Positions 2,362-64,000 of a DNA stretch of 64,000 nucleotides are shown here, in pieces. Made by a program: the position numbers and the translations under genes. Each line of letters begins with the position of its first letter. Position 1 is the stretch's first letter. This DNA comes from Thermoanaerobaculia bacterium (lineage in GTDB: Bacteria > Acidobacteriota > Thermoanaerobaculia > Multivoradales > UBA5704), in NCBI GenBank assembly GCA_035996875.1, contig DASYJD010000013.1:114-64113 (forward strand), in the 5' to 3' direction. Under the pieces are notes generated by a model that made no database searches, was not told where the DNA came from, and worked only from the letters and a program-made list of their open reading frames with translations.

Positions 2362-2571
2362 GGTCGTTCCTCCTTAGAACCTTAGACGCAGTCTAGGAGG
2401 AAAAGAACACCACCCCGAAGAAACGGGCGTTCGGCCCCGCGGGGTAGCGGGTGGTCCCGGAGATTGGGGGCAGGACGATCCGGACGTTGGCGGGACTCGG
2501 AGATTTCCGTGCCGGCGATGGCCCCCATCACCCTCGATCCATTGAGCCATCGGATTTTGACCCGTCGGCTG

Positions 2572-2754
2572 CCACTGTAGAGACGCCCCACGGGGAACCC
2601 CGTGGGGCGTCTCATTCGAAGCGTCGGCCTCTCCGTTTTCCGGAACAGTCTGGGGCGGTCTTTTCGTCGGTCTTCAGATCTTCCTGCCGGCTGTGAGGTC
2701 GTTGCCTTCGAGGAGACGCCCCGCGGGGTTCCCCGCGAGGCGTCTCTACAGTGG
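2572..2754. repeat. pair of ~42-bp palindromic hairpin elements in inverted orientation (GAGACGCCCCACGGGG-AA-CCCCGTGGGGCGTCTC and its near reverse complement), 100 bp apart
   Basis: Perfect 16-bp stem palindromes at ~2580-2614 and ~2713-2746, with matching CTGTAGAGACG / CGTCTCTACAG flanks. Located in the upstream region of the 538..2361 gene. Confidence 0.6.
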
Positions 2755-2860
2755 CCGGCAGAGGTAATGAGATTTCCGCCAACTCGGCAAACCGCTCCCT
2801 CTTCTCCCGGCGGGCTGGGTAACGACGCAGCAACAGCAACGCAACCATCTTGGAGCAATG

Positions 2861-3040
2861 CTCCGGCTTAAGCAGCCGTTGCTCCGGCTTGAGCAGTCGT
2901 TGCTCTGGCTTGAGCAGCCATTGCTCCGGCTTGAGCAGCCATTGCTCCGGCTTGAGCAGTCATTGCTCCGGCTTGAGCAGTCGTTGCTCTAGCTTGAGCA
3001 GCCGTTGCTCCGGCTTAAGCAGCCGTTGCTCCCGCTTGAG
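2861..3040. repeat. 21-bp tandem repeat array, ~8.5 copies (unit CTCCGGCTTGAGCAGCCGTTG)
   Basis: Direct head-to-tail copies with point variants and no spacers, so not CRISPR. The same unit recurs as its reverse complement at 21649-21860. Confidence 0.85.
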
Positions 3041-3043
3041 TCT

Positions 3044-3721
3044 TCACCCCGCCTTCGCCGAGCGCCGCTCGGCCATCTTGAGGATGTAGCTCGCGGCGTC
3101 CGGCGTCTTGCAGCCGGTGTCGCCGTGGTCCACCTTCACCTTGCCGATGCGGCCGGCGGCGGCGAGGGCCTTCTTCTGCAGCGCCGGCTTCCTGCCGCCG
3201 ATAGAGATGAGGGCACCGTTCATCTGATGGCGCACCCGGTTCTGGCTGCCGTGGAGATCGCGCTCGATGCGGGCGAGGGCCTCCTCGGCTTCGGCGTCGG
3301 AGAGCTCGCCCTCCGCGACGAGGTGGGAGAGGACGGTCCAGCCGGCCGAGGCGGTCAGCTCCACCGGGGACTCGATCCACCGCTCCATCGCCTCCCGCGC
3401 CACCGAGGACTTCACCGCGAGACCGGCCAGATATCCCGTCTCGATGTAGTTGGCGAGGCTCGCCGCCCAGGCGTCGAGGGTCGCGCCGTCGAGCTTCTTC
3501 GGGTCGGCGACCATCGTCGCCAGGATACGGGCCTCGTGGTTGCCGGAGGCCCACAGCTCTCCCGCCAGCGCGTGGTCTTGTTTGATCTTCTTCCGGAGGC
3601 TCGTGAGGTCCGGCGTGCTGACACCGTAGCAATCCTCGCCCGCGCCATGCCGCCGGTAGGTCTTCCGCGTCTGCTCCTTGCCGGCTGACTTCAGAGAATC
3701 GAGGGTCTGTTGGAGGTTCAT
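3044..3721 (-). CDS. DNA alkylation repair enzyme (AlkD-like HEAT-repeat protein)
   Basis: 225-aa product resembles the DNA alkylation repair (AlkC/AlkD-like) family in size and repeat character, e.g. GELWASGNHEARILATMVADP. Confidence 0.65.
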   Translation of the reverse strand: MNLQQTLDSLKSAGKEQTRKTYRRHGAGEDCYGVSTPDLTSLRKKIKQDHALAGELWASGNHEARILATMVADPKKLDGATLDAWAASLANYIETGYLAGLAVKSSVAREAMERWIESPVELTASAGWTVLSHLVAEGELSDAEAEEALARIERDLHGSQNRVRHQMNGALISIGGRKPALQKKALAAAGRIGKVKVDHGDTGCKTPDAASYILKMAERRSAKAG

Positions 3722-3737
3722 GCCTCGATTCTATCTC

Positions 3738-6482
3738 TCACTCGTCCTCGCTCGCGTTGTCGTACCGTACCAGCGCCACCTTCCAGATTCCCGGCGCCTC
3801 GGTGACGCCCCACTGCCAGACGTCGTGGTCGAACTGCGCGGTCGTGGTGCCGAGAGTGGCGATGGCCTGATCGGTGGTTTTGCCGGCGTTGAAGGCGTCG
3901 AGGAGGCGGTGGATGCCCGCGCGGCCGTAGCGGTGCTCGACGTAATGAAGGGTCCAGCGCGACTCGTCGTAGCCAATGGCGATGAGCGCCGGCGAGAGGC
4001 TGCCGATGGCGGGCTCCAGCAGCGGGAAGCCGAGCAGATTGCTCTTGTCGCGGTAACCCTGGATGGGATTTACATTCTCCTGCACCATCTCGACGTGCTG
4101 TGCCAAGCCCTCCTGGAACCAGTGCGGTGCCCGGTCGCCCGTCCGCTCGGCGATCATGGCGTGGGCCAGCTCGTGGGTGAGGATGCTGACGACGAACGGC
4201 ACGAACCTCGGGGCATCGCCCAGCGGCACGCGGATCTTGCCGTCGTAAAGCCCGAGGATGTCGAGCCCCGGCGAGTAGCCGGCCTGAAAGTCGTCGAAAT
4301 GCAGGATGTGGACCTCGGTGGATTTGGACGAGCTGAGGGGAATCCACGCTTGCAGGCGGCTGCGCTCGGCCTCCAGAATGCGGGCCGCGTCTTTGGCGAA
4401 AGCCTCTCCGCGCAACGGCGGATAGTGGATCTCGAAGTGCGGGCTGCGATAGATCTCGGAGGAGACCGCCAGGCGCTTCTCCATCTGGATCTGCCGGATC
4501 CGCGCGTCGCCTGCCTCGAAGGGAAGCTCCGAGTTGGCCTTGGCCACGAGCTTGAGGGCCGTATCGAAATTCCCCTCGGCGGCCAGCAGATCGGCAAGCT
4601 GGTAGAGCGTCTCGGGGTCCATCCGCTGGCCGGCCTTGTCGCCCTGGACCACCCGCACGAGCAGATCGCGCGCCTCCTTCTCGCGCCCCGCTCGCCGCAG
4701 GGCCTCGGCGCGGAGCCGCAGGAGCCCGGAAGGCAGGCTCGCGACCTCCTGAGAGAGGCTCTCGGTCAGCGTCAGCACCTCGCCCCACCGTTGCCTTCCG
4801 GCCAGGGCTTCCGCGGTGCCCTCCGTCTGGCGCCGTAGAGACGGCTGGGCGAGGGCGCCCGGAGTGCGGGCCGCCGCCTGGAGCGCCGGCAGGCCGGCCA
4901 GCAGCTTCTCCTCCCGCTCGTCGTTCCAGAGGCCGGCATAGTCGACTCTCGTGCCCGGCGGCGCCAGGTCGCAGCCTCCGGGCACTCGCAGCTCTGCCGG
5001 GCCGCGGGTCAGCCGCAGCGTCTGGCCGAGCAGGCGCGCCTCGAAGCCGGCCGGCGGCGACAAGGCGCGGCTGGAGGCTCCCGCGCAGGCCACCACGGGA
5101 TCCGTGGCCGACTCCAGATGCACGAGCCGCCGGATCTGGGCGTCCTGGAACAGGGCGAGCAGCGCCGGCCGGTCCATCACCTCCGAACGTGCGATCGGCT
5201 GCAACTGCCAGGCGATGCGGAAGAGCTCCTCCGCCTCCGCCAACCGATGGTCCCGCACCGCCGTCTCCGCCAGCTCGAGATAGGTGTCCGCCCGCCGCGA
5301 TCCGAGCTCCTGGAGCTGGCGCAGGAACGCCAGGGCGTGACCGCGAAATCCCAGCACCAGGAAGGCCTGGGCGCTTTCCGCCAACAGCCCCTCCTGCGGC
5401 GCTCCCACCGTGGCGGCCCGCTGGTAGGCGGTGGCCGTAGGCAGCTCCTGGAGACGCAGGAACGCCAAGCGGGCCCGCAGCAGCTCGGCCAGCGGAAACC
5501 GTCCCGGCGACGGGAAGCCGGCGAGAAGGCCGTCGACGCCATGGAAGTCCATGCGCCCGAGGAGGTGCTGCGTCCACCAAAGGCTGGCGACGCGCCCGGC
5601 CGTGCCGGGGCCGTGCATGGCGGTCGGCGCCGCCTCCGGCACGGTCCCTCCCGGCTGGGTGAGCGCTTGGCGCAGCGGCAACAGCGAACGCAGCTCGGCG
5701 AAATCCGGTTCTCCGCCGCCCTTCGTTGCGCCGGACGCGCCGGCAGCGCCCCGAGACGCCAGCACCCGCGGCAGGAACACCATCGCCAGCGCTCCGGCCA
5801 CCACCAGCGCTCCGGCGATCCCCAGCCCGAGGGCGACGCCTCGCCGCGGCCGCTGATCCCAGGCCGCCAGCAGAAGGACCAGGCCGATTCCGACGATCCC
5901 ACCGATCATCCACAAGGGCAGCATGCCGAACCGGTGGGCCGTGGCCGCCCGCTTGGCCTCCGGTCCCTCGGGCGATCCGGCGGCGGACGTCACGGATGTC
6001 GCGGACATCGCGGCGCTCGCGGCGCTCGCGGCCACAGGCTCGGCGGAGATCCGCAGCGAGTCGATCTTCCACCCTCCGCCCTCCATCACGAGGCCGAGGA
6101 TCAGGGTGTCGTCGAGCCCCGAAGGGAACTGGAGAGCGAAGACGGCGCCCGAAGCGGAGAGCTCGGGAGCGGCGGCCTGGAGCTCCCACTGCGCCTCGGC
6201 GGGCGAGCCGGCCCGCACCTCGATCTCGGCCAGCGCGGCGTCGCGCCCCAGCCGGCGCAGAGGCGAGGTGCGCGACAGGTGATCCCACCAGGCGGCGGGG
6301 CCCCGCTCCAGGTACTCGGCGGCGAAGACGACGCCCTGCCGCTCGGCGTCGCTGAGCGGCCGCGGTCCGGCGGGTGCCGGAGCCGCGAGGGCGGAGCCGG
6401 CGGCGGTCATCGCACAGAGGAGAGCTGCGGCAACGGCGGCTCGCGTCGTGAGCATCGGTTCGGTTCCTTCCTCGAAATGCAA
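3738..6482 (-). CDS. large membrane protein with TPR-like repeats and C-terminal HExxH zinc-metallopeptidase-like domain
   Basis: 914 aa. N-terminal signal sequence, two internal TM helices (LPLWMIGGIVGIGLVLLLAAW ... LGLGIAGALVVAGALAMVFL), helical repeat region, and a C-terminal SILTHELAHAMIAERTG motif (HExxH). Confidence 0.6.
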   Translation of the reverse strand: MHFEEGTEPMLTTRAAVAAALLCAMTAAGSALAAPAPAGPRPLSDAERQGVVFAAEYLERGPAAWWDHLSRTSPLRRLGRDAALAEIEVRAGSPAEAQWELQAAAPELSASGAVFALQFPSGLDDTLILGLVMEGGGWKIDSLRISAEPVAASAASAAMSATSVTSAAGSPEGPEAKRAATAHRFGMLPLWMIGGIVGIGLVLLLAAWDQRPRRGVALGLGIAGALVVAGALAMVFLPRVLASRGAAGASGATKGGGEPDFAELRSLLPLRQALTQPGGTVPEAAPTAMHGPGTAGRVASLWWTQHLLGRMDFHGVDGLLAGFPSPGRFPLAELLRARLAFLRLQELPTATAYQRAATVGAPQEGLLAESAQAFLVLGFRGHALAFLRQLQELGSRRADTYLELAETAVRDHRLAEAEELFRIAWQLQPIARSEVMDRPALLALFQDAQIRRLVHLESATDPVVACAGASSRALSPPAGFEARLLGQTLRLTRGPAELRVPGGCDLAPPGTRVDYAGLWNDEREEKLLAGLPALQAAARTPGALAQPSLRRQTEGTAEALAGRQRWGEVLTLTESLSQEVASLPSGLLRLRAEALRRAGREKEARDLLVRVVQGDKAGQRMDPETLYQLADLLAAEGNFDTALKLVAKANSELPFEAGDARIRQIQMEKRLAVSSEIYRSPHFEIHYPPLRGEAFAKDAARILEAERSRLQAWIPLSSSKSTEVHILHFDDFQAGYSPGLDILGLYDGKIRVPLGDAPRFVPFVVSILTHELAHAMIAERTGDRAPHWFQEGLAQHVEMVQENVNPIQGYRDKSNLLGFPLLEPAIGSLSPALIAIGYDESRWTLHYVEHRYGRAGIHRLLDAFNAGKTTDQAIATLGTTTAQFDHDVWQWGVTEAPGIWKVALVRYDNASEDE

Positions 6483-20882: not shown

Positions 20883-20972
20883 ATGGCGGAGAGGGTGGGA
20901 TTCGAACCCACGGACCGGTTGCCCGGTCAACGGTTTTCGAGACCGTCCCATTCGACCGCTCTGGCACCTCTC
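20883..20972 (-). tRNA. tRNA-Ser (anticodon CGA), long variable arm
   Basis: Reverse complement GGAGAGGTGCCAGAGCGGTCGAATGG...GGTTCGAATCCCACCCTCTCCGCCA. Anticodon loop CT-CGA-AA, T-loop GGTTCGAATCC, encoded CCA. Confidence 0.8.
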
Positions 20973-20994
20973 CGGTAATTTGTCTGTCGAGATC

Positions 20995-21084
20995 GTGGCG
21001 GAGAGAGTGGGATTCGAACCCACGGTAGAGTTTCCCCTACACACGCTTTCCAAGCGTGCTCCTTAAGCCACTCGGACATCTCTC
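20995..21084 (-). tRNA. tRNA-Ser (anticodon GGA), long variable arm
   Basis: Reverse complement GGAGAGATGTCCGAGTGGCTTAAGGAGCACGCTTGGAAAGCGTG...GGTTCGAATCCCACTCTCTCCGCCA. Anticodon loop TT-GGA-AA. Confidence 0.8.
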
Positions 21085-21108
21085 CCGATCCTGCAAAGAA
21101 CCTTGTCG

Positions 21109-23686: not shown

Positions 23687-23932
23687 TCTATGGAATGCCT
23701 GCCCGCCCCCGCCTGTTGTTCCAGATCCCGGACTCCGGGCTACGTTCTTTACTTCCCTGATCCCACGACGTAGCATGAGCAGCCTTAGGACAGTGGCCCA
23801 CGAAGGGTTCGGGTCCTGTGCATCGGCCGATACCGAACCTCGTCAGGCCCGGAAGGGAGCAGCGATAAGGTATCCGGACGAGTGCCGCAGATTCACCGGA
23901 ACCCTTCGTTGACCACTGCCGGCAAAACACCC

Positions 23933-27879: not shown

Positions 27880-27907
27880 AGTAAAGTAACGAGTGAGGGA
27901 ATCAATC

Positions 27908-28339
27908 ATGGCCACAGCGCATGACATTGCTGCTTACATCCTGCAACAGAGGGGTGAGCTGACGGCGATGAAGCTTCAGAAACTGGTGTACTACTCCCAG
28001 GCGTGGTCTCTGGTCTGGGATGAAGAGCCTCTGTTTCCCGAGGAGATCCAGGCATGGACGAACGGACCGGTGGTGCCGGAGCTCTATAAGGCCCATCGCG
28101 GTCTGTTCCGGGTTCGTGACTGGCCGCAGGGCAAACCCGGATGCCTGACCAAGGGGCAACGCAAGACGGTCGACGCGGTGCTCGACTACTACGGCGACAA
28201 GACCTCTCAGTGGCTGAGCGACTTGACCCATCGGGAAGCCCCTTGGCTTGAAGCCCGAAAGGGGCTTGATCCCGGTGATCCCGGTCGCCGAATCATCACC
28301 CACGCCTCCATGGCCGAGTACTACAGCAATCCGTACTAG
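27908..28339 (+). CDS. Panacea-domain (DUF4065, SocA-like) putative antitoxin, copy 1
   Basis: KLQKLVYYSQAWSLVWDEEPLF...WTNGPVVPELY matches the DUF4065/Panacea core. GAGGG RBS. A paralog lies at 61528-61959. Confidence 0.75.
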   Translation: MATAHDIAAYILQQRGELTAMKLQKLVYYSQAWSLVWDEEPLFPEEIQAWTNGPVVPELYKAHRGLFRVRDWPQGKPGCLTKGQRKTVDAVLDYYGDKTSQWLSDLTHREAPWLEARKGLDPGDPGRRIITHASMAEYYSNPY

Positions 28340-28488
28340 ACCTCGTGGGTAAACGATCCCGCCATAAGTCATCCCAACCTGCCGACAGGATTCCTCAGAG
28401 AGCCCAGGTTCCCGAGCAGCAGCGGGTTCCCAGGGCTGTCGCCGGCACGAGCTATCACAGCCTCCGGCCCTCCTGGCGGGTTGGAAGG

Positions 28489-28809
28489 ATGGAGATGGTC
28501 GACCCCTTTGGCTGGCACAGGGTCGACGGTCCCACGATCCTGTACGTCCGGTCGCGATTGGCTCACTTCGAGTCGATGACCTGGACGGAGATCCTGGTCC
28601 AGGCGAAGAAGCAGAACCACTCCATCAGGGTTGAGGACATCTGCTCCACTGCTCAGCAGCGACTCGAAGCCCTTGGTCTGCTGCTCGACGACGTGGTTTC
28701 TCTGCGCTTATCGGGGAGGGAGAGAGTCTACGGTTACCTAGAGAACGGCGTTCTCATCCTTCTCTGGTGGGACCCGCTACACCAGATCTGTCCTTCCCTG
28801 AGGGAGTAG
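28489..28809 (+). CDS. putative toxin partner of Panacea antitoxin, divergent RelE/ParE-like fold, copy 1
   Basis: C-terminal SLRLSGRERVYGYLENGVLILLWWDPLH follows the RelE/ParE/YoeB hallmark (LRxSGxYRhhY...hhhL.hhHR). Conserved with its paralog at 62082-62444. GGAAGG RBS. An alternative upstream GTG at 28345 is possible. Confidence 0.5.
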   Translation: MEMVDPFGWHRVDGPTILYVRSRLAHFESMTWTEILVQAKKQNHSIRVEDICSTAQQRLEALGLLLDDVVSLRLSGRERVYGYLENGVLILLWWDPLHQICPSLRE

Positions 28810-58060: not shown

Positions 58061-59768
58061 GACGCCTGACATGCCTGAAACATCCGAAGGCATCCTCGAC
58101 TGGCTGGAGCAGGCCGGCCGCCGCCCGGAAGGAGGGCTGCGCTTCATCGACCGGGCCGAGAAGGCCACCTGGTTCGGCTGGGCCGAGGTCCGCGCGCGGG
58201 CTCTCGCCGCGTGCGGCGGCCTGCAGGCGCTGGGTGTCGAGCGCGGCGACCGCGTGGCCCTGGTCTTCCCCACCGGCATCGACTTTTTTACCGCCTTCTT
58301 CGGCGCCCTGCTGGCCGGCGCCGTGCCGGTGCCCCTCTACCCGCCGGCGCGCCTGGGCCGCACCGAGGAGTATCTACGCCGCACGGCGAGGATGTTGGAG
58401 CGCTCCGGCGCCCGGCTCGTCCTGGCCGAATCCCGCGTCTGCCGGAAACTCGGCGGGGCCGTTGAACCGGCGCTGGGCTGCCGGGCGCTGACGGACCTCC
58501 CCTTGGGAACGGCGCGGCCGGTCCAAGCCTTCCCTGCGGATCTCGCCCTGATCCAGTTCTCCTCCGGCACGACGGTCGATCCCAAACCCGTGGCGCTCAG
58601 TCACCGTGCCGTCGCGGCCCAGGCGGAGATCCTCGCCAGCTTCTGGCCCGACACGACGGAGCTGCGCCAGAGCTGCGTCTCCTGGCTGCCGCTCTACCAC
58701 GACATGGGATTGATCGGCTGCGTCTTCCCGGCCCTGGCGCGGGATGCGGGCCTGACGCTCTTCGCCCCGGAGCTGTTCGTCGCCCGCCCGGCCCTCTGGC
58801 TGCGGACCCTCTCGCGTTACCGTGCCACGATCTCGCCGGCCCCCAACTTTGCCTATAGCCTCTGCCTGACCCGGATCTCGGACGCCGAAATGGAGGGAGT
58901 GGACCTCTCCGGCTGGCAGACGGCCCTCAACGGCGCCGAGTCGATCTCGCCTGCGGTATTACGGGCGTTCTGCAACCGTTTCGCCAGCTGGGGTTTTCGG
59001 CCCGAGGCCATGACACCCGTCTATGGATTGTCGGAAGCGGCTCTCGCCGTCACCTTCTCGGACCTCGGCCAGCCGTTTCAAGTCACTCGCTTCGACCGCG
59101 AAGAGCTGGCCCGCGAGGGTCGGGCTCGGGCTTCGGCCGAAGGGAGGGAGATCGTCTCGGTGGGCCGGCCGGTCCCCGGGTTCCGCCTGCGGATCGTGGA
59201 CTCAGGAGGGCACGATCTGCCCGCCGGGGCCGTAGGCCGCGTCTGGATTCAAGGCCCATCCCTAATGGAAGGCTACCTCGGTGATCCGGAAGGTACGGAG
59301 CGCGCCCTGCGGGATGGCTGGCTGGACACGGGCGACCTGGGATTCCTGCACGACGGGGAGCTCTATCTGGCAGGCCGCGCCAAGGATGCCGTCATCCTGC
59401 GCGGCCGCAACCACGCACCCGAGGAGATCGAGCGGGCGGTGGACGAGGTGTCGGGGCTGCGCGCCGGGAGCGTCGTCGCCGTGAGCTGGCTGCCGGAGGA
59501 CGCTCCCGGCGAGGTGCTGGCCCTCTTCGTCGAAGCCACCCGGGAGGCGACGCCGGAGGAGCTCGCGGCCCTGCCCGACGCCTGCCGCGAAGCCGTCCTC
59601 GGCGCGACCGGACTCGCCGTGGACCGCCTCGAAGTACTGACGCCCGGTGCCCTGCCCCGCACCTCGTCGGGCAAGCTGCGCCGGGGGGAGACCCTGCGCC
59701 TCTACCTTGCTGGCGAGCTCGCCCTCCTGGAGCCCGCGGCCTCCCTGCTGATGGGAGCCCTGGCGTGA
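58053..59768 (+). CDS. fatty acyl-AMP ligase (FAAL) / long-chain acyl-CoA synthetase family
   Basis: FSSGTTVDPKPV (AMP-binding motif I), YGLSEA, TGDLG...GR.KD motifs. An insertion-containing architecture typical of FAALs that load ACPs. Confidence 0.8.
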   Translation: MPETPDMPETSEGILDWLEQAGRRPEGGLRFIDRAEKATWFGWAEVRARALAACGGLQALGVERGDRVALVFPTGIDFFTAFFGALLAGAVPVPLYPPARLGRTEEYLRRTARMLERSGARLVLAESRVCRKLGGAVEPALGCRALTDLPLGTARPVQAFPADLALIQFSSGTTVDPKPVALSHRAVAAQAEILASFWPDTTELRQSCVSWLPLYHDMGLIGCVFPALARDAGLTLFAPELFVARPALWLRTLSRYRATISPAPNFAYSLCLTRISDAEMEGVDLSGWQTALNGAESISPAVLRAFCNRFASWGFRPEAMTPVYGLSEAALAVTFSDLGQPFQVTRFDREELAREGRARASAEGREIVSVGRPVPGFRLRIVDSGGHDLPAGAVGRVWIQGPSLMEGYLGDPEGTERALRDGWLDTGDLGFLHDGELYLAGRAKDAVILRGRNHAPEEIERAVDEVSGLRAGSVVAVSWLPEDAPGEVLALFVEATREATPEELAALPDACREAVLGATGLAVDRLEVLTPGALPRTSSGKLRRGETLRLYLAGELALLEPAASLLMGALA

Positions 59769-60868
59769 CCGATCTGTTGACGGATCTTTTGGTGGTCGGT
59801 GGCGGCCCCGCGGGGCTGGCGACCGCCATCCGCGCGCGCCTCGCCGGACTCAACATCACCGTGATCGACCGCGCCCGGCCGCCTATCGACAAGGCCTGCG
59901 GCGAGGGCTTGATGCCCGACGCCGTAGCGCGCCTGCGGGAGATCGGCGTCGAGCCGCGGGGCTTCCCCTTCCGCGGCATCCGCTATGTCGACGGCGACCT
60001 CCAGGCCGAGGGGCACTTTCCCGGCTCCGGCGGCCTCGGCGTACGCCGCACCGAGCTCCACGCCGCCCTCGTCCGCCGGGCGCAGGAAGTCGGCGTCGAT
60101 CTCCGCTGGGGCGTGAAGGCCGAGGGGCTTGACGCCGAAGGCATCCGGACAGACCAGGGGGCCCTCGCCGCCCGCTGGATCGTGGGAGCGGACGGCCTGC
60201 GCTCCCAGGTGAGGCGTTGGGCTGGGCTCGACGGGAGGTTGAGCGCGCTGCGACGCTTCGGCGTCCGCCGGCATTTCGCCGTGGCTCCCTGGAGCGACTG
60301 CGTCGAGGTCCACTGGGGGCCGGAATGTGAGGCCTATGTAACCCCGGTGGGCGGCGACGAAGTGGGGATCGCCATCCTCTGGAGCAGGCGGAAGGCCGGC
60401 TTCGACAATCTCCTGGAGAGCTTTCCAACCCTGAGGGAGAAGGTAGGGAACGCCCCAATCGCCTCCCGCGACCGCGGCACCGGCCCCCTCCGGCAGCAGG
60501 CGAGCGCGGTATCTAAGGGTCGCGTGGCCCTGGTGGGCGATGCCGCCGGGTATCTCGACGCCATCACCGGCGAAGGCTTGGCCGTCACTCTCCACGAGTC
60601 GGCGGCCCTGGTCGAGGCCCTCGCGGCGGGCGATCTCTCCCGCTACGCCGCCGCCCACCGGCGCATCAACCGTCTGCCCAACTTCATGACGTCGATGGTG
60701 CTTGCCCTGGAGCGGCGTCCCCGGCTGCGCCGCCGCGCCCTTCGCGCCCTCGCCGCCGAGCCCGCTCTCTTCGCCCGCCTTCTGGGCATCCACGCCCGCA
60801 CCTTGCCGCCCCGAGATTTTGGGTTCGACGGAGCCCTTCGGCTGGCCTGGAGACTGGTTGCAGCTTAA
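59765..60868 (+). CDS. FAD-dependent monooxygenase (UbiH/geranylgeranyl-reductase-like)
   Basis: VVGGGPAGLATAI (GxGxxG) and GADGLRSQVRR (GADGxxS) motifs. GTG start overlaps the FAAL stop. Confidence 0.75.
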   Translation: MTDLLTDLLVVGGGPAGLATAIRARLAGLNITVIDRARPPIDKACGEGLMPDAVARLREIGVEPRGFPFRGIRYVDGDLQAEGHFPGSGGLGVRRTELHAALVRRAQEVGVDLRWGVKAEGLDAEGIRTDQGALAARWIVGADGLRSQVRRWAGLDGRLSALRRFGVRRHFAVAPWSDCVEVHWGPECEAYVTPVGGDEVGIAILWSRRKAGFDNLLESFPTLREKVGNAPIASRDRGTGPLRQQASAVSKGRVALVGDAAGYLDAITGEGLAVTLHESAALVEALAAGDLSRYAAAHRRINRLPNFMTSMVLALERRPRLRRRALRALAAEPALFARLLGIHARTLPPRDFGFDGALRLAWRLVAA

Positions 60869-60884
60869 ACAAGGAGAACTCGCA

Positions 60885-61478
60885 ATGCTCTGCCGCAGGA
60901 TCGCTCTCGCCCTCGTGTCCATGTTGGCCTTCGTTTCGATCCTCCCCGCCGAGCCGGTGACTTTCGAGCTCGACGCCGCAGCCACCACCATCGAGTTCAC
61001 CTTCGGCGCCACCCTCCACACGGTCGACGGCACGATACGCGTCAAGGAAGGATCGATTCATATCGATCCCGAAACCGGCACCGCCAGCGGCCGCATCGTC
61101 ATCGACGCCATCAGCGCCAAGACCGGCAACGACCGTCGAGACCGCAAGATGCACGAGAAGATCCTCGAGAGCCAGCGCTATCCCGAGATGATCTTCGAGA
61201 TCGAGCGGCTGAGCGGCAAGCTCAACCCTGTGGGCCAGAGCGAGATCGAGCTTCACGGCACCCTGGAGATGCACGGCACCCGCCGGCCCCTCGCCCTGCC
61301 GGCGACCGTCATGACCTCCGACGGCAAGACGGTGACCGGCACCGGCATGCTCATCCTCTCCTATCGGGATTGGGGGCTCGCCGATCCGAGCGTCTTCATC
61401 TTGCGGGTGGAGAAGGAGGTGCACGTGACCGTGAAGGCCGTGGGGCGGATCTCGGACGGGACTTCGCCTGGGGAGTAG
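60885..61478 (+). CDS. YceI-family polyisoprenoid/lipid-binding protein
   Basis: AAGGAG RBS, signal peptide, and the YceI beta-barrel signature (ATTIEFTFGATLHTVDGTI...GNDRRDRKMHEKILESQRYPEMIFE). Confidence 0.8.
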   Translation: MLCRRIALALVSMLAFVSILPAEPVTFELDAAATTIEFTFGATLHTVDGTIRVKEGSIHIDPETGTASGRIVIDAISAKTGNDRRDRKMHEKILESQRYPEMIFEIERLSGKLNPVGQSEIELHGTLEMHGTRRPLALPATVMTSDGKTVTGTGMLILSYRDWGLADPSVFILRVEKEVHVTVKAVGRISDGTSPGE

Positions 61479-61527
61479 GGAATTTCTCGCGCCTTCCGGG
61501 TGTAGAATAAGGGCGAGGATTTCACTG

Positions 61528-61959
61528 ATGACGACTGTACATAACGTAGCGGCCTACATCCTGCAAAAGCAGGGTGAAATGACCGCTATGAAGCTCCAGA
61601 AGCTCGTCTATTACTCTCAAGCCTGGTCGCTCGTCTGGGATGAGGAGCCTCTGTTTGCCGAACGGGTCGAAGCCTGGGCCAATGGTCCCGTGGTTCCCGA
61701 TCTCTACCGTGAGCACAAAGGGCAGTTCAAGGTCGGTTCATGGCCGCGAGGAAACCCCGAGGCCTTGTCGGCAGTCCATCGCGAGACGATCGACTCCGTG
61801 CTTGGCTACTACGGAGACAAGGCTTCCCAGTGGCTCAGCGACCTGACGCACCGGGAAGATCCCTGGCTCGACGCCCGCCGCGGCCTTGCGCCCGGCGAAA
61901 GAGGCTCGACGGAGATCTCCCATGCCGCGATGGCAGAATATTACGGGAGCCTGACGTAG
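61528..61959 (+). CDS. Panacea-domain (DUF4065, SocA-like) putative antitoxin, copy 2
   Basis: KLQKLVYYSQAWSLVWDEEPLF...WANGPVVPDLY. Roughly 80% nucleotide and 75% amino-acid identity to copy 1 in the core. Confidence 0.75.
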   Translation: MTTVHNVAAYILQKQGEMTAMKLQKLVYYSQAWSLVWDEEPLFAERVEAWANGPVVPDLYREHKGQFKVGSWPRGNPEALSAVHRETIDSVLGYYGDKASQWLSDLTHREDPWLDARRGLAPGERGSTEISHAAMAEYYGSLT

Positions 61960-61970
61960 GCCCCCCGTTC

Positions 61971-62444
61971 ATGCCGAAGCAGCCGCGACAGAGAAGCTCT
62001 CCCTCCAGTCTCAAGCAGCCGGTCGCAGGGAAGGCCGTAAAGTCCTCCAAGGAGCCCAGGATCACCGCTGGGGAAGATCCCATGCGAGAGAGTCCCGCGT
62101 GGCACATCTCGACCCTGGAGACAGTGGACCCCTTCGGCTGGCACCGGATCGACACCGAGAAGCTGGGAGAGGTCCGCAGGAAGATCGGCGACTTCGAATC
62201 TATGACCTGGAATGAGATTCTCGTCGTCGCGAGTCACAGAAACCACGCGGTCTCCGTGGACCGGCTCTGCAAGGCCGCGCAGGATCGGTTGGAAGAGATC
62301 GGCCAGGGAGATGTCGACGAATTGGTCTCGCTACGGCTCTCCGGCCCGGAACGAATCTGGGGAATCCGCGCCGGCCGCATTTTGAAGATCCTGTGGTGGG
62401 ACCCGGAGCACGCGGTCTGCCCCGCCCTATTGAGACATACCTGA
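61971..62444 (+). CDS. putative toxin partner of Panacea antitoxin, divergent RelE/ParE-like fold, copy 2
   Basis: VDPFGWHRID...FESMTWNEILV...SLRLSGPERIWGIRAGRILKILWWDPEH is conserved with copy 1. A Lys/Pro-rich N-terminal extension is present only if the ATG at 61971 is used. The alternative ATG at 62082 gives a 120-aa product. Confidence 0.5.
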   Translation: MPKQPRQRSSPSSLKQPVAGKAVKSSKEPRITAGEDPMRESPAWHISTLETVDPFGWHRIDTEKLGEVRRKIGDFESMTWNEILVVASHRNHAVSVDRLCKAAQDRLEEIGQGDVDELVSLRLSGPERIWGIRAGRILKILWWDPEHAVCPALLRHT

Positions 62445-62462
62445 GGCATACTTGAAGAAGCC

Positions 62463-64000
62463 ATGAAGAAGCCCACCCACGACTGGTCCCCTTTTCTTGC
62501 CGACGAACGTCCGGTGGAGCGGTTCTCGCCCCATGGGCGGTACCGGCTGGCTCTGGCGTATGCCAACAGCTACCACATCGGCATGTCGAGCCTGGGGTTC
62601 CAGCGCGTCTACGAGCTGGTTCACCAACGGCCGGACTGGTCGTGCGAGCGCCTCTTCACGGACGGCATCGGCATGCCGGTCTCACTCGAGACCCGGCGAT
62701 CGATGAACGACTTCGGCTGCATCGCCTTCTCCGTCTCCTTCGAAGAGGACTACGTCAACCTCCTCCAGATGCTCGACCGCGCCCGCATCCCCTTGCGCCG
62801 GCGCGACCGCGGCCCGTGGGACCCGGTGATCGTCCTCGGCGGCTCTTGCGCCGCGATCAATCCGCTGCCGATGTCGGAGTTCGTCGACGTCTTCACCCTC
62901 GGCGCCGCCGAGAACGTCCTCCCTCACCTTCTCGACGCCCTGGAAGGCGAGGAAGGGCGGGAGGCGGTGATCGAGCGTCTGGCCGCTCTGGACGGCTTCT
63001 ACGTTCCCGCCTTCCATCATCCGGAGGACGAGGGGGACGAGCTGCCCAAGCTCAACAAGCTGGAGCTCACCGAAGAGCAGATGAAGCAGACGGGAAACCT
63101 GCCGACCACCTGCATCGTCACGCCGCGCACCGAGTTCTCCGAGAAGTTCCTCATCGAGATGTCCCGCGGCTGCCCCGAGAAGTGCCGCTACTGCTGGGCG
63201 ACCTTCGGCATGGGGCGCTTCCGCTGGCACCCGACGGACGAGATCCTCGCCGCGCTGGAGCGGGCCAAGCCCATCACCAACCAGCTCGGCTTCGTGGCCA
63301 CGGCCGTCGGCGACCATCCGGACATCGAACCCATTCTCCGCGAGGCCAACAAGCTCGGCTTCCGCACCTCGGTCTCGTCGATCCGCATCCCGGCGGTCAC
63401 CGAGGGCGTGCTCGAAGCCCTCCACGCCTCGGGCGACCGCTCCATCACCCTCGCGCCCGAAACCGGCACGGACGAGCTGCGGGTGAAGATGGGCAAGCCG
63501 ATCAAGAACGAGTTCCTGCTGGAGAAGATTCGCCTCATCTTCCGCCACGGCTTCACCCAGCTCAAGCTCTACTTCCTGATCGGCCTGCCGGGCGAGACCA
63601 TGGAGGACATCCAGGGCATCCTGGACCTCGCCGCCCGCGCCCGCGCCGTGATGCTCGACGAGCTGCCGAAGAAGGGGATGATCGGCAACATCCACCTCGG
63701 CACCAACGTGCTGGTGCCGAAGCCCTACACCCCCTGGCAGCGCGAGCCGATGGACGACGAGCGGAGCCTCAAGGAAAAGATCGCCGTCCTGAAGAAGGGC
63801 GTCTCCCGCATGCCCAACATCTCCCTGGGCTCCATCTCCGTCCGCCAAGCCATCTGGCAGACCTACATCAGCAAAGCCGGAAGCGGCGCCGCCGACGCCA
63901 TCGAAGCCGCCGCCCGGGGAGAATCGATCAGCTCCCTCCTCCACCGCTTCGCACCCCAGATCCAGCCGGAGGTCTATCAGCGGCTGGAGGGGGATTTACG
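62463..64000 (+). CDS. B12-binding-domain radical SAM protein (partial, runs off window end)
   Basis: IEMSRGCPEKCRYCW (CxxxCxxC) preceded by an N-terminal B12-binding-like domain (VIVLGGSCAAINPLPMSEF). The frame is open to the end of the window. Confidence 0.8.
   Translation, partial: MKKPTHDWSPFLADERPVERFSPHGRYRLALAYANSYHIGMSSLGFQRVYELVHQRPDWSCERLFTDGIGMPVSLETRRSMNDFGCIAFSVSFEEDYVNLLQMLDRARIPLRRRDRGPWDPVIVLGGSCAAINPLPMSEFVDVFTLGAAENVLPHLLDALEGEEGREAVIERLAALDGFYVPAFHHPEDEGDELPKLNKLELTEEQMKQTGNLPTTCIVTPRTEFSEKFLIEMSRGCPEKCRYCWATFGMGRFRWHPTDEILAALERAKPITNQLGFVATAVGDHPDIEPILREANKLGFRTSVSSIRIPAVTEGVLEALHASGDRSITLAPETGTDELRVKMGKPIKNEFLLEKIRLIFRHGFTQLKLYFLIGLPGETMEDIQGILDLAARARAVMLDELPKKGMIGNIHLGTNVLVPKPYTPWQREPMDDERSLKEKIAVLKKGVSRMPNISLGSISVRQAIWQTYISKAGSGAADAIEAAARGESISSLLHRFAPQIQPEVYQRLEGDL

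Follow-up and report, generated by a model that had tools for sequence, protein, structure and literature searches.

The closest described relatives of the locus analysed here are the PanA–PanT (PanAT) toxin–antitoxin (TA) pairs, of which Kurata et al. 2022 predicted 1,268 loci, falling into 88 toxin clusters, with two PanA proteins in 217 taxa and several PanAT copies per genome as a common situation (PMC8832971). Cluster T1, labelled 'mRNase' on the basis of HHpred in the same study (PMC8832971), is the largest of the predicted PanT clusters; no other predicted partner of the 'hyperpromiscuous' Panacea antitoxin is as abundant, and it has no validated TA pair. Subsequently, Ernits et al. 2023 found that a stand-alone Panacea protein can neutralise directly, suggested a sensory role for the domain and, for one validated Panacea system, predicted a contact with the unstructured N-terminus of the toxin (PMC10440598). 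Here, we analysed a 64,000-nucleotide (nt) stretch of the genome of a Thermoanaerobaculia bacterium (contig DASYJD010000013.1, positions 114 to 64,113; hereafter, the window), which carries at positions 61528-62444 the two-gene cassette panA2–panT2 (copy 2) and, 33.6 kb away, the paralogous cassette panA1–panT1 (copy 1). An earlier note, drawn from the letters of this DNA alone, had described copy 2 as a second Panacea antitoxin plus putative toxin cassette, and our data agree with the essence of that description, with corrections to the identity values, to one motif and to the tail. All together, the sequence comparisons presented below favour, with a probability of about 0.6, the interpretation of this region as a bicistronic PanA–PanT module of the T1 class, similar to type II TA systems and encoding a putative RNase toxin.

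Copy 2 consists of two adjacent open reading frames (ORFs) on the + strand. Specifically, panA2 (61528..61959) encodes a stand-alone Panacea (DUF4065) antitoxin-like protein of 143 aa, in which a Pfam search recognises the SocA_Panacea domain (E 1.7e-17, 64.8 bits, with a gathering score of 25.7) and neither a helix-turn-helix nor any other N-terminal domain; the same protein matches phrog_1281 (E 2.5e-37). Following a spacer of 11 nt (61960..61970, + strand), panT2 (61971..62444, + strand) encodes the T1-class partner, a putative BECR/RelE-fold RNase toxin of 157 aa composed of a basic, Lys/Pro-rich disordered tail (residues 1-40) and a folded core (residues 41-157). No Shine-Dalgarno (SD) sequence was detected in the 11-nt spacer ahead of panT2, and the translation of the two genes is therefore likely to be coupled. 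Copy 1 presents the same layout. In this case, panA1 (27908..28339, + strand; 143 aa, SocA_Panacea 65.7 bits, likewise with no further domain) most likely starts at the ATG at 27908, which is preceded by an SD-like GAGGGA, and not at the alternative GTG at 27893, and it is followed after 5 nt by panT1 (28345..28809, + strand), which encodes 154 aa from the GTG at 28345 and begins with the same kind of basic tail.

Both copies thus display the features by which Kurata et al. 2022 defined PanAT loci: a Panacea domain above the Pfam gathering score, a two-gene locus with gaps of 11 and 5 nt (the limit being 100 nt) that is not part of a longer conserved operon, the flanks differing between loci and between copies, and a partner that falls in a listed PanT cluster. 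The assignment to T1 comes from WP_017744647.1 of Scytonema hofmannii, reported as a T1 member paired with PanA WP_017744648.1 in Dataset S1 (PMC8832971), which lies in the same 90% cluster as the partner-family member P0085. The 98-nt gap between PanA and PanT given for this pair in Dataset S1 is an effect of a truncated gene call of 118 aa. The RefSeq partner of S. hofmannii is indeed 118 aa long, and relatives support 148 aa (P0121 compared with P0085). In addition, the profile of the partner family aligned with the T1 member of phage Emek with an hhalign probability of 81% (E 1.2e-5). These data support the identity of the PanA–partner module at the level of family membership.

By comparing the two copies by BLASTP, PanA2 and PanA1 were found to share 95 of 141 residues (67%, E 8e-77) and the two partners 66 of 153 (43%, E 2e-45). 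The identity of about 75% previously attributed to the antitoxin core applies to the N-terminal core only and not to the whole protein. Three of the blocks presented as strictly conserved, namely VDPFGWHR, FESMTW and SLRLSG.ER, occur in both partners; the fourth, given as ILWWDP.H, is not strictly conserved, since copy 2 has KILWWDPEH where copy 1 has LLLWWDPLH. At the nucleotide level, a similarity of 71% is restricted to 61522-61944 / 27902-28324 and 62116-62225 / 28490-28599. No third copy of the cassette was found within the window.

The partner belongs to a large family in which every one of the 383 word-indexed matches is annotated as hypothetical, and from which a profile search (E<=1e-3) retrieved at least 2,472 representatives of 50%-identity clusters. 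In the alignment of 54 members (A1), W44, G56, W57, E76, T79, W80, H92, S120, L121, R128, G131, W142, W143, D144, P145, H147 and P151 are invariant, and R122 is nearly so. A genome scan found 456 loci, of which 80 were kept, belonging to Acidobacteriota (many of them Thermoanaerobaculia), Cyanobacteria, Deltaproteobacteria, Nitrospirota, Chloroflexi, Verrucomicrobia and others. In 78 of these 80 partner-anchored loci, the gene that immediately precedes the partner, in the same orientation, is PanA, the median gap being 7.5 nt; the same pair is found in Gloeobacter violaceus, and the identities of PanA and partner co-vary (r 0.58). The ratios of non-synonymous to synonymous substitutions (dN/dS), which are 0.04-0.10 for PanA (0.04-0.09 for PanA2 against its orthologues) and, for the core of the partner, 0.03-0.11, indicate that both genes are functional, with purifying selection acting on each. 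As a separate observation, a tblastn search of a phage collection with the partner returned a single match, L003 (MT835822.1, 'Bacteriophage sp.', from a human faecal sample), a phage-labelled human-gut contig of unverified nature, which carries at 2501-3471 a PanA (54% identical) and, after it, a partner-like ORF (39% identical, C-terminal half).

The start of panT2 is most likely the ATG at 61971, because the alignment with copy 1 begins there: residue 78 of a mechanically called 234-aa ORF, the first of MPKQPRQ, pairs with residue 1 of panT1 (MGKRSRH), and a protein identical to the resulting 157-aa product exists in JGI data. The 234-aa ORF itself, starting at 61740, was discarded as the partner gene; it overlaps panA2 out of frame, homologues begin at 61971, and it was considered an artefact of the high GC content. 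An alternative internal ATG (M38, 62082..62084, + strand), preceded at a distance of 6-12 nt by an SD-like GGGGAAG, would yield a 120-aa form, which is called by some pipelines and is represented by 120-aa members of the same 90% cluster; M38 is conserved in the copy-2 subclade only.

The earlier note had also proposed that the Lys/Pro-rich extension is absent from copy 1, and this did not hold: residue 1 of one partner aligns with residue 1 of the other (MPKQPRQRSS / MGKRSRHKSS) and the tail is a feature of the whole family, copy 1 included. In the 67 loci that allowed its limits to be set, the tail spans about 34 residues at the N-terminus, with 15% Lys and 14% Pro, and it is found also in cyanobacteria of 35-46% GC, a content at which chance would not be expected to keep a long frame open. 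The dN/dS of the tail is 0.20-0.35, against the lower values of the core given above, and therefore the tail appears to be translated and under a looser constraint than the core. Many database entries of this family, 107-120 aa in length, probably lack it.

An AlphaFold2 model built on A1 reached a mean predicted local distance difference test (pLDDT) score of 77.7, with values of about 90 in the greater part of the core and under 50 in residues 1-30, and predicts, in this order, a β-hairpin, a pair of helices, one short strand, another helix and three strands. RelE, HigB and YafQ were the top matches of the fold search. When Foldseek was run against the PDB and BFVD nothing significant was returned, the RelE/HigB/YafQ-type families still ranking first. 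By sequence, the partner falls in none of the curated RelE, ParE, HigB, YafQ or Gp49 families: no Pfam match was obtained for any of the 54 members even at E<=10, and a sequence-profile search of the PDB gave 0 matches at E<=10. The PADLOC model of NsnC was matched in its C-terminal region (profile positions 191-280 of 284) by 51 of the 54 members (best 1.6e-7), a region of NsnC for which a YafQ-like BECR RNase domain carrying an H-R-H triad has been reported (PMC12065111). The NCBIfam model MAG6450_fam was matched weakly by 54 of 54 members (best 1.7e-6), with 21.7 and 17.2 bits for the two copies of the window and a cutoff of 40, which indicates remote similarity only. As a whole, the idea that the partner adopts a divergent, RelE/YafQ-like BECR fold, homologous to the RNase domain of NsnC, is moderately supported by the model and the profile matches, and H92, R128 and H147, together with E76, would be the candidate catalytic set.

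On the basis of these data, a TA-like mechanism can be proposed, in which the two genes would be co-translated and PanA would bind the partner directly, holding it inactive, possibly by way of the disordered N-terminus, a mode of action already predicted for other stand-alone Panacea antitoxins. Loss or triggering of PanA, for instance by phage infection, would release the partner, which would cleave RNA, probably mRNA on the ribosome, thereby arresting translation; the cleavage would probably depend on the invariant His92/Arg128/His147 set (plus Glu76). Several observations weigh against this proposal. The toxicity that it predicts has mostly not been seen in published tests of T1 members: the C. 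cadaveris protein was toxic and was not neutralised by its PanA, and those of E. coli MOD1 and phage Emek were not toxic in E. coli (PMC8832971). The fold scores are moderate. PanA lacks a DNA-binding domain, and around either cassette no repeat resembling an operator was found: scans for sigma-70 promoters, terminators and inverted repeats returned no promoter and no operator, but only two opposite-strand terminator-like hairpins inside panT2 and one 11-nt inverted repeat inside panA2. In 99.7% of 3,403 pairs the conservation of PanA exceeds that of the partner (means of 64% and 47%), which is unusual for antitoxins. Two of the loci depart from the common arrangement: in L052 (1-2021) the partner is an orphan, with no PanA within 1.5 kb upstream and a 448-aa ORF there instead, and in L032 (1731-3423) an unrelated 159-aa ORF precedes the partner and PanA is divergently oriented. 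Finally, in a 2026 analysis of JCVI-syn3.0 (M. mycoides), the RelE-like gene of a possibly related pair is quasi-essential and the adjoining DUF4065 gene dispensable (PMC13621843), the reverse of TA logic.

Part of this evidence would also fit a partner that is not a toxin in the classical sense, being either a BECR effector activated under specific conditions and gated by a PanA sensor, as in abortive infection or phage defence, or a non-toxic RNA-processing or ribosome factor regulated by PanA. Two of the three T1 proteins being harmless in E. coli, the sensory role favoured by Ernits et al., the reversed essentiality in JCVI-syn3.0 and the higher conservation of PanA all point in this direction, as do the stable, syntenic inheritance of both cassettes under strong purifying selection and the resemblance of the partner to the effector domain of a Menshen defence protein. 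We consider this explanation possible, yet doubtful. The neighbourhood is not a defence island, the flanking genes being of the housekeeping type (YceI, radical SAM, aminotransferase, AAA_28), and one T1 member is toxic. In addition, a natural allele, L104 (2934-3475), keeps an intact copy-2-like PanA (75% identical to PanA2) at the site occupied by copy 1, between the aminotransferase and AAA_28 genes, and has a partner in which an internal deletion of about 370 nt fuses the first 7 codons, out of frame, with the last ~22, leaving MPKRPKHVSTS* and an out-of-frame C-terminal remnant. Loss of the partner with retention of PanA is what a harmful partner would predict, in a single case. A partner acting as a ParE-like gyrase poison, or as another non-RNase member of the fold, appears still less probable: RelE-type and ParE-type toxins are inseparable by fold alone, but the top fold matches are RelE, HigB and YafQ, the invariant His/Arg/His/Glu set resembles those of RNases, and the sole sequence-level links lead to the RNase domain of NsnC and to a cluster labelled mRNase. 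The TA-like module with a putative RNase toxin is thus the reading we retain.

The finding of the same two-gene architecture twice in 64 kb could also suggest that the second copy arose by a recent duplication within this genome (the earlier note had spoken of duplication) or through an assembly artefact. Both possibilities have a negligible probability and were ruled out. The pairwise alignment of the two cassettes with their flanks, which the earlier note had suggested, showed no similarity between the flanks and placed the 71% nucleotide identity in the coding regions only, so that assembly duplicates are excluded. Moreover, each copy is far more similar to orthologues that occupy the matching syntenic position in other genomes than to the other cassette of the window. 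For copy 2, the identities of PanA and partner are 100% and 97% in L084, 90% and 80% in L089, and 89% and 77% in L004; for copy 1, they are 86% and 86% in L082, and 87% and 85% in L103. The gene order of L004 is that of copy 2 (FAD-oxidoreductase, YceI, cassette, radical SAM), and the order of L082 is that of copy 1 (aminotransferase, cassette, AAA_28, TPR). Copy 1 ranks 67th among the 82 partner-protein neighbours of copy 2. Because of these closer orthologues, of the synteny in other Thermoanaerobaculia and of this rank, the copies are regarded as two old paralogous lineages, each of them inherited vertically in its recent history. In L004, which is the closest genome and a long-read metagenome-assembled one, the radical SAM orthologue (3486-5006) is split over several frames, probably as a result of assembly indels and not as a pseudogene.

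Copy 2 is flanked upstream by a YceI-like gene (60885..61478, + strand; PF04264, 5.8e-23) and downstream by a radical SAM gene (62463..64000, + strand; Radical_SAM_N2 and Radical_SAM) that runs off the window, both lying outside the cassette. The site had been described as lying between YceI and B12-radical-SAM genes; both neighbours were recovered, and no Pfam match to a B12-binding domain was obtained for the second. Copy 1 is flanked by a class-III aminotransferase gene and by an AAA_28 gene. Among metagenomic relatives, the YceI–radical SAM slot holds the cassette in L084 and L089, 300-430 nt of non-coding DNA in L085-L087, L090 and L092, whose radical SAM proteins are 81-99% identical to that of the window (97-99% in L085-L087), and just 12-89 nt in L091, L093 and L094. 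In L088 (2349-3558) it holds a different TA-like pair, an HTH_66+DUF433 protein (264 aa) and a PIN_10 protein (150 aa). Likewise, the aminotransferase–AAA_28 slot is empty in L101 and L102 and carries a copy-1-type cassette in L082 and L103. Since both sites show presence/absence polymorphism among close relatives, the cassette fits an accessory, exchangeable module; to this extent the former proposal of a mobile, selfish TA module is supported, and the part concerning duplication is not. Both slots act as hot spots for small TA-like cassettes. Neither cassette is accompanied by an integrase, a transposase, a tRNA or flanking repeats, and tRNA and Rfam scans showed no integration-type landmark close to them; we infer that the cassettes move by recombination in the conserved flanks.

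The intergenic region upstream of panA2 (61479..61527, + strand) contains a -10-like TAGAAT at 61503-61508 and, at 61515-61519, an SD-like GAGGA. The cassette-less relative L090 matches 61480-61508 at 93%, and because these first ~29 nt are common to both, the left edge of the cassette would fall at about 61509-61521. The GC content of the cassette is 60-61.5%, compared with 66.8% for the window.

Some further observations concern the slots and the window. The slot DNA of L085-L087 contains repetitive extragenic palindromic (REP)-like palindromes (GAGACGCCCCGCGGGG / CCCCACGGGGCGTCTC). In the window, REP-like units (GAGACGCCCCNCGGGG and its reverse complement) are present at two places, 2580-2613 and 2713-2746, and in the relatives they fill the YceI–radical SAM slot devoid of the cassette (L085 4647-4840, L086 4658-4844, L087 4699-4747); they look like a small family of repeated extragenic elements of this lineage. 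In L103 (1730-2503), an HTH_66-DUF433 gene adjoins the copy-1-type cassette. Distant from both cassettes, the window encodes a tandem of two tRNA-Ser genes (with the anticodons CGA and GGA; 20884-21085, - strand) and the bacterial small signal recognition particle (SRP) RNA (23807-23905, + strand). Other long overlapping ORFs, such as a 420-aa antisense ORF at 62682-63944 and many antisense ones across 59500-64000, are artefacts of the high GC content.

Taken on its own, the locus is one more chromosomal PanAT pair of a class already known in silico, and its value is modest, that of an entry point to the T1 class and of a well-defined case on which this class can be tested. It offers as handles a full-length start, a conserved basic tail, which is missed by many gene calls, and a candidate His/Arg/His site, in addition to two diverged paralogues in one genome and, for both sites, natural alleles that are empty, occupied or decayed. 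We tentatively raise the unlikely but consequential idea that T1 is not a classical toxin but a PanA-gated BECR RNase, of which the family-wide Lys/Pro tail would be the key element; the tail could serve as a docking site for PanA, as a degron, or for targeting to ribosomes or RNA. If true, this would explain the T1 proteins that are not toxic in E. coli, the conservation of PanA above that of its partner and the reversed essentiality in a related Mollicute pair.

With regard to known systems, PanA shares the Panacea/SocA domain with SocAB, the type VI TA system of Caulobacter. However, it scores 44 bits against the SocA equivalog, whose cutoff is 190, the partner is unrelated to SocB, and nothing points to a ClpXP-adaptor mechanism. 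With the PB-BECR1 domain of NsnC (Menshen, PMC12065111), the partner shares a weak, family-wide similarity and a possible H-R-H triad. Unlike NsnC, it is free-standing and paired with PanA, it lacks the inPIN N-terminal domain, and its neighbours are YceI and radical SAM, not NsnA (ParB-DUF262) and NsnB (ABC ATPase). The likeness to the Mollicute pair MMSYN1_0416 (RelE-like) / MMSYN1_0417 (DUF4065) and to NCBIfam MAG6450 consists of weak matches to the latter below its cutoff, direct homology to MMSYN1_0416 being no more than a possibility, and no K/P tail is evident in the Mollicute proteins.

The ribosome-dependent mRNA interferases RelE, HigB, YafQ and YoeB (BECR) would resemble the partner in the predicted helices and antiparallel sheet and in a conserved C-terminal His and conserved Arg residues on the sheet; like it, they are small proteins encoded downstream of their antitoxins. 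The partner differs from them in having no sequence-level membership in Pfam or PDB families and in adding an N-terminal β-hairpin, a helix inserted at residues 101-109 and a basic disordered tail of 40 residues; in addition, the antitoxin is here a Panacea protein and not RelB, HigA, DinJ or YefM. None of the accessions searched for was present in the NetFlax supplement, and Panacea is absent from a bioRxiv survey of defence toxins of the RelE/ParE type. In conclusion, the closest correspondence is with PanAT T1, which has the same order of genes, a stand-alone Panacea antitoxin followed after a short gap by the partner. T1 is a very broad cluster, including members from phage Emek, E. coli, Mollicutes and cyanobacteria, and the subfamily described here, marked by the WWDPxH motif and the K/P-rich tail, is remotely similar to the members tested so far.

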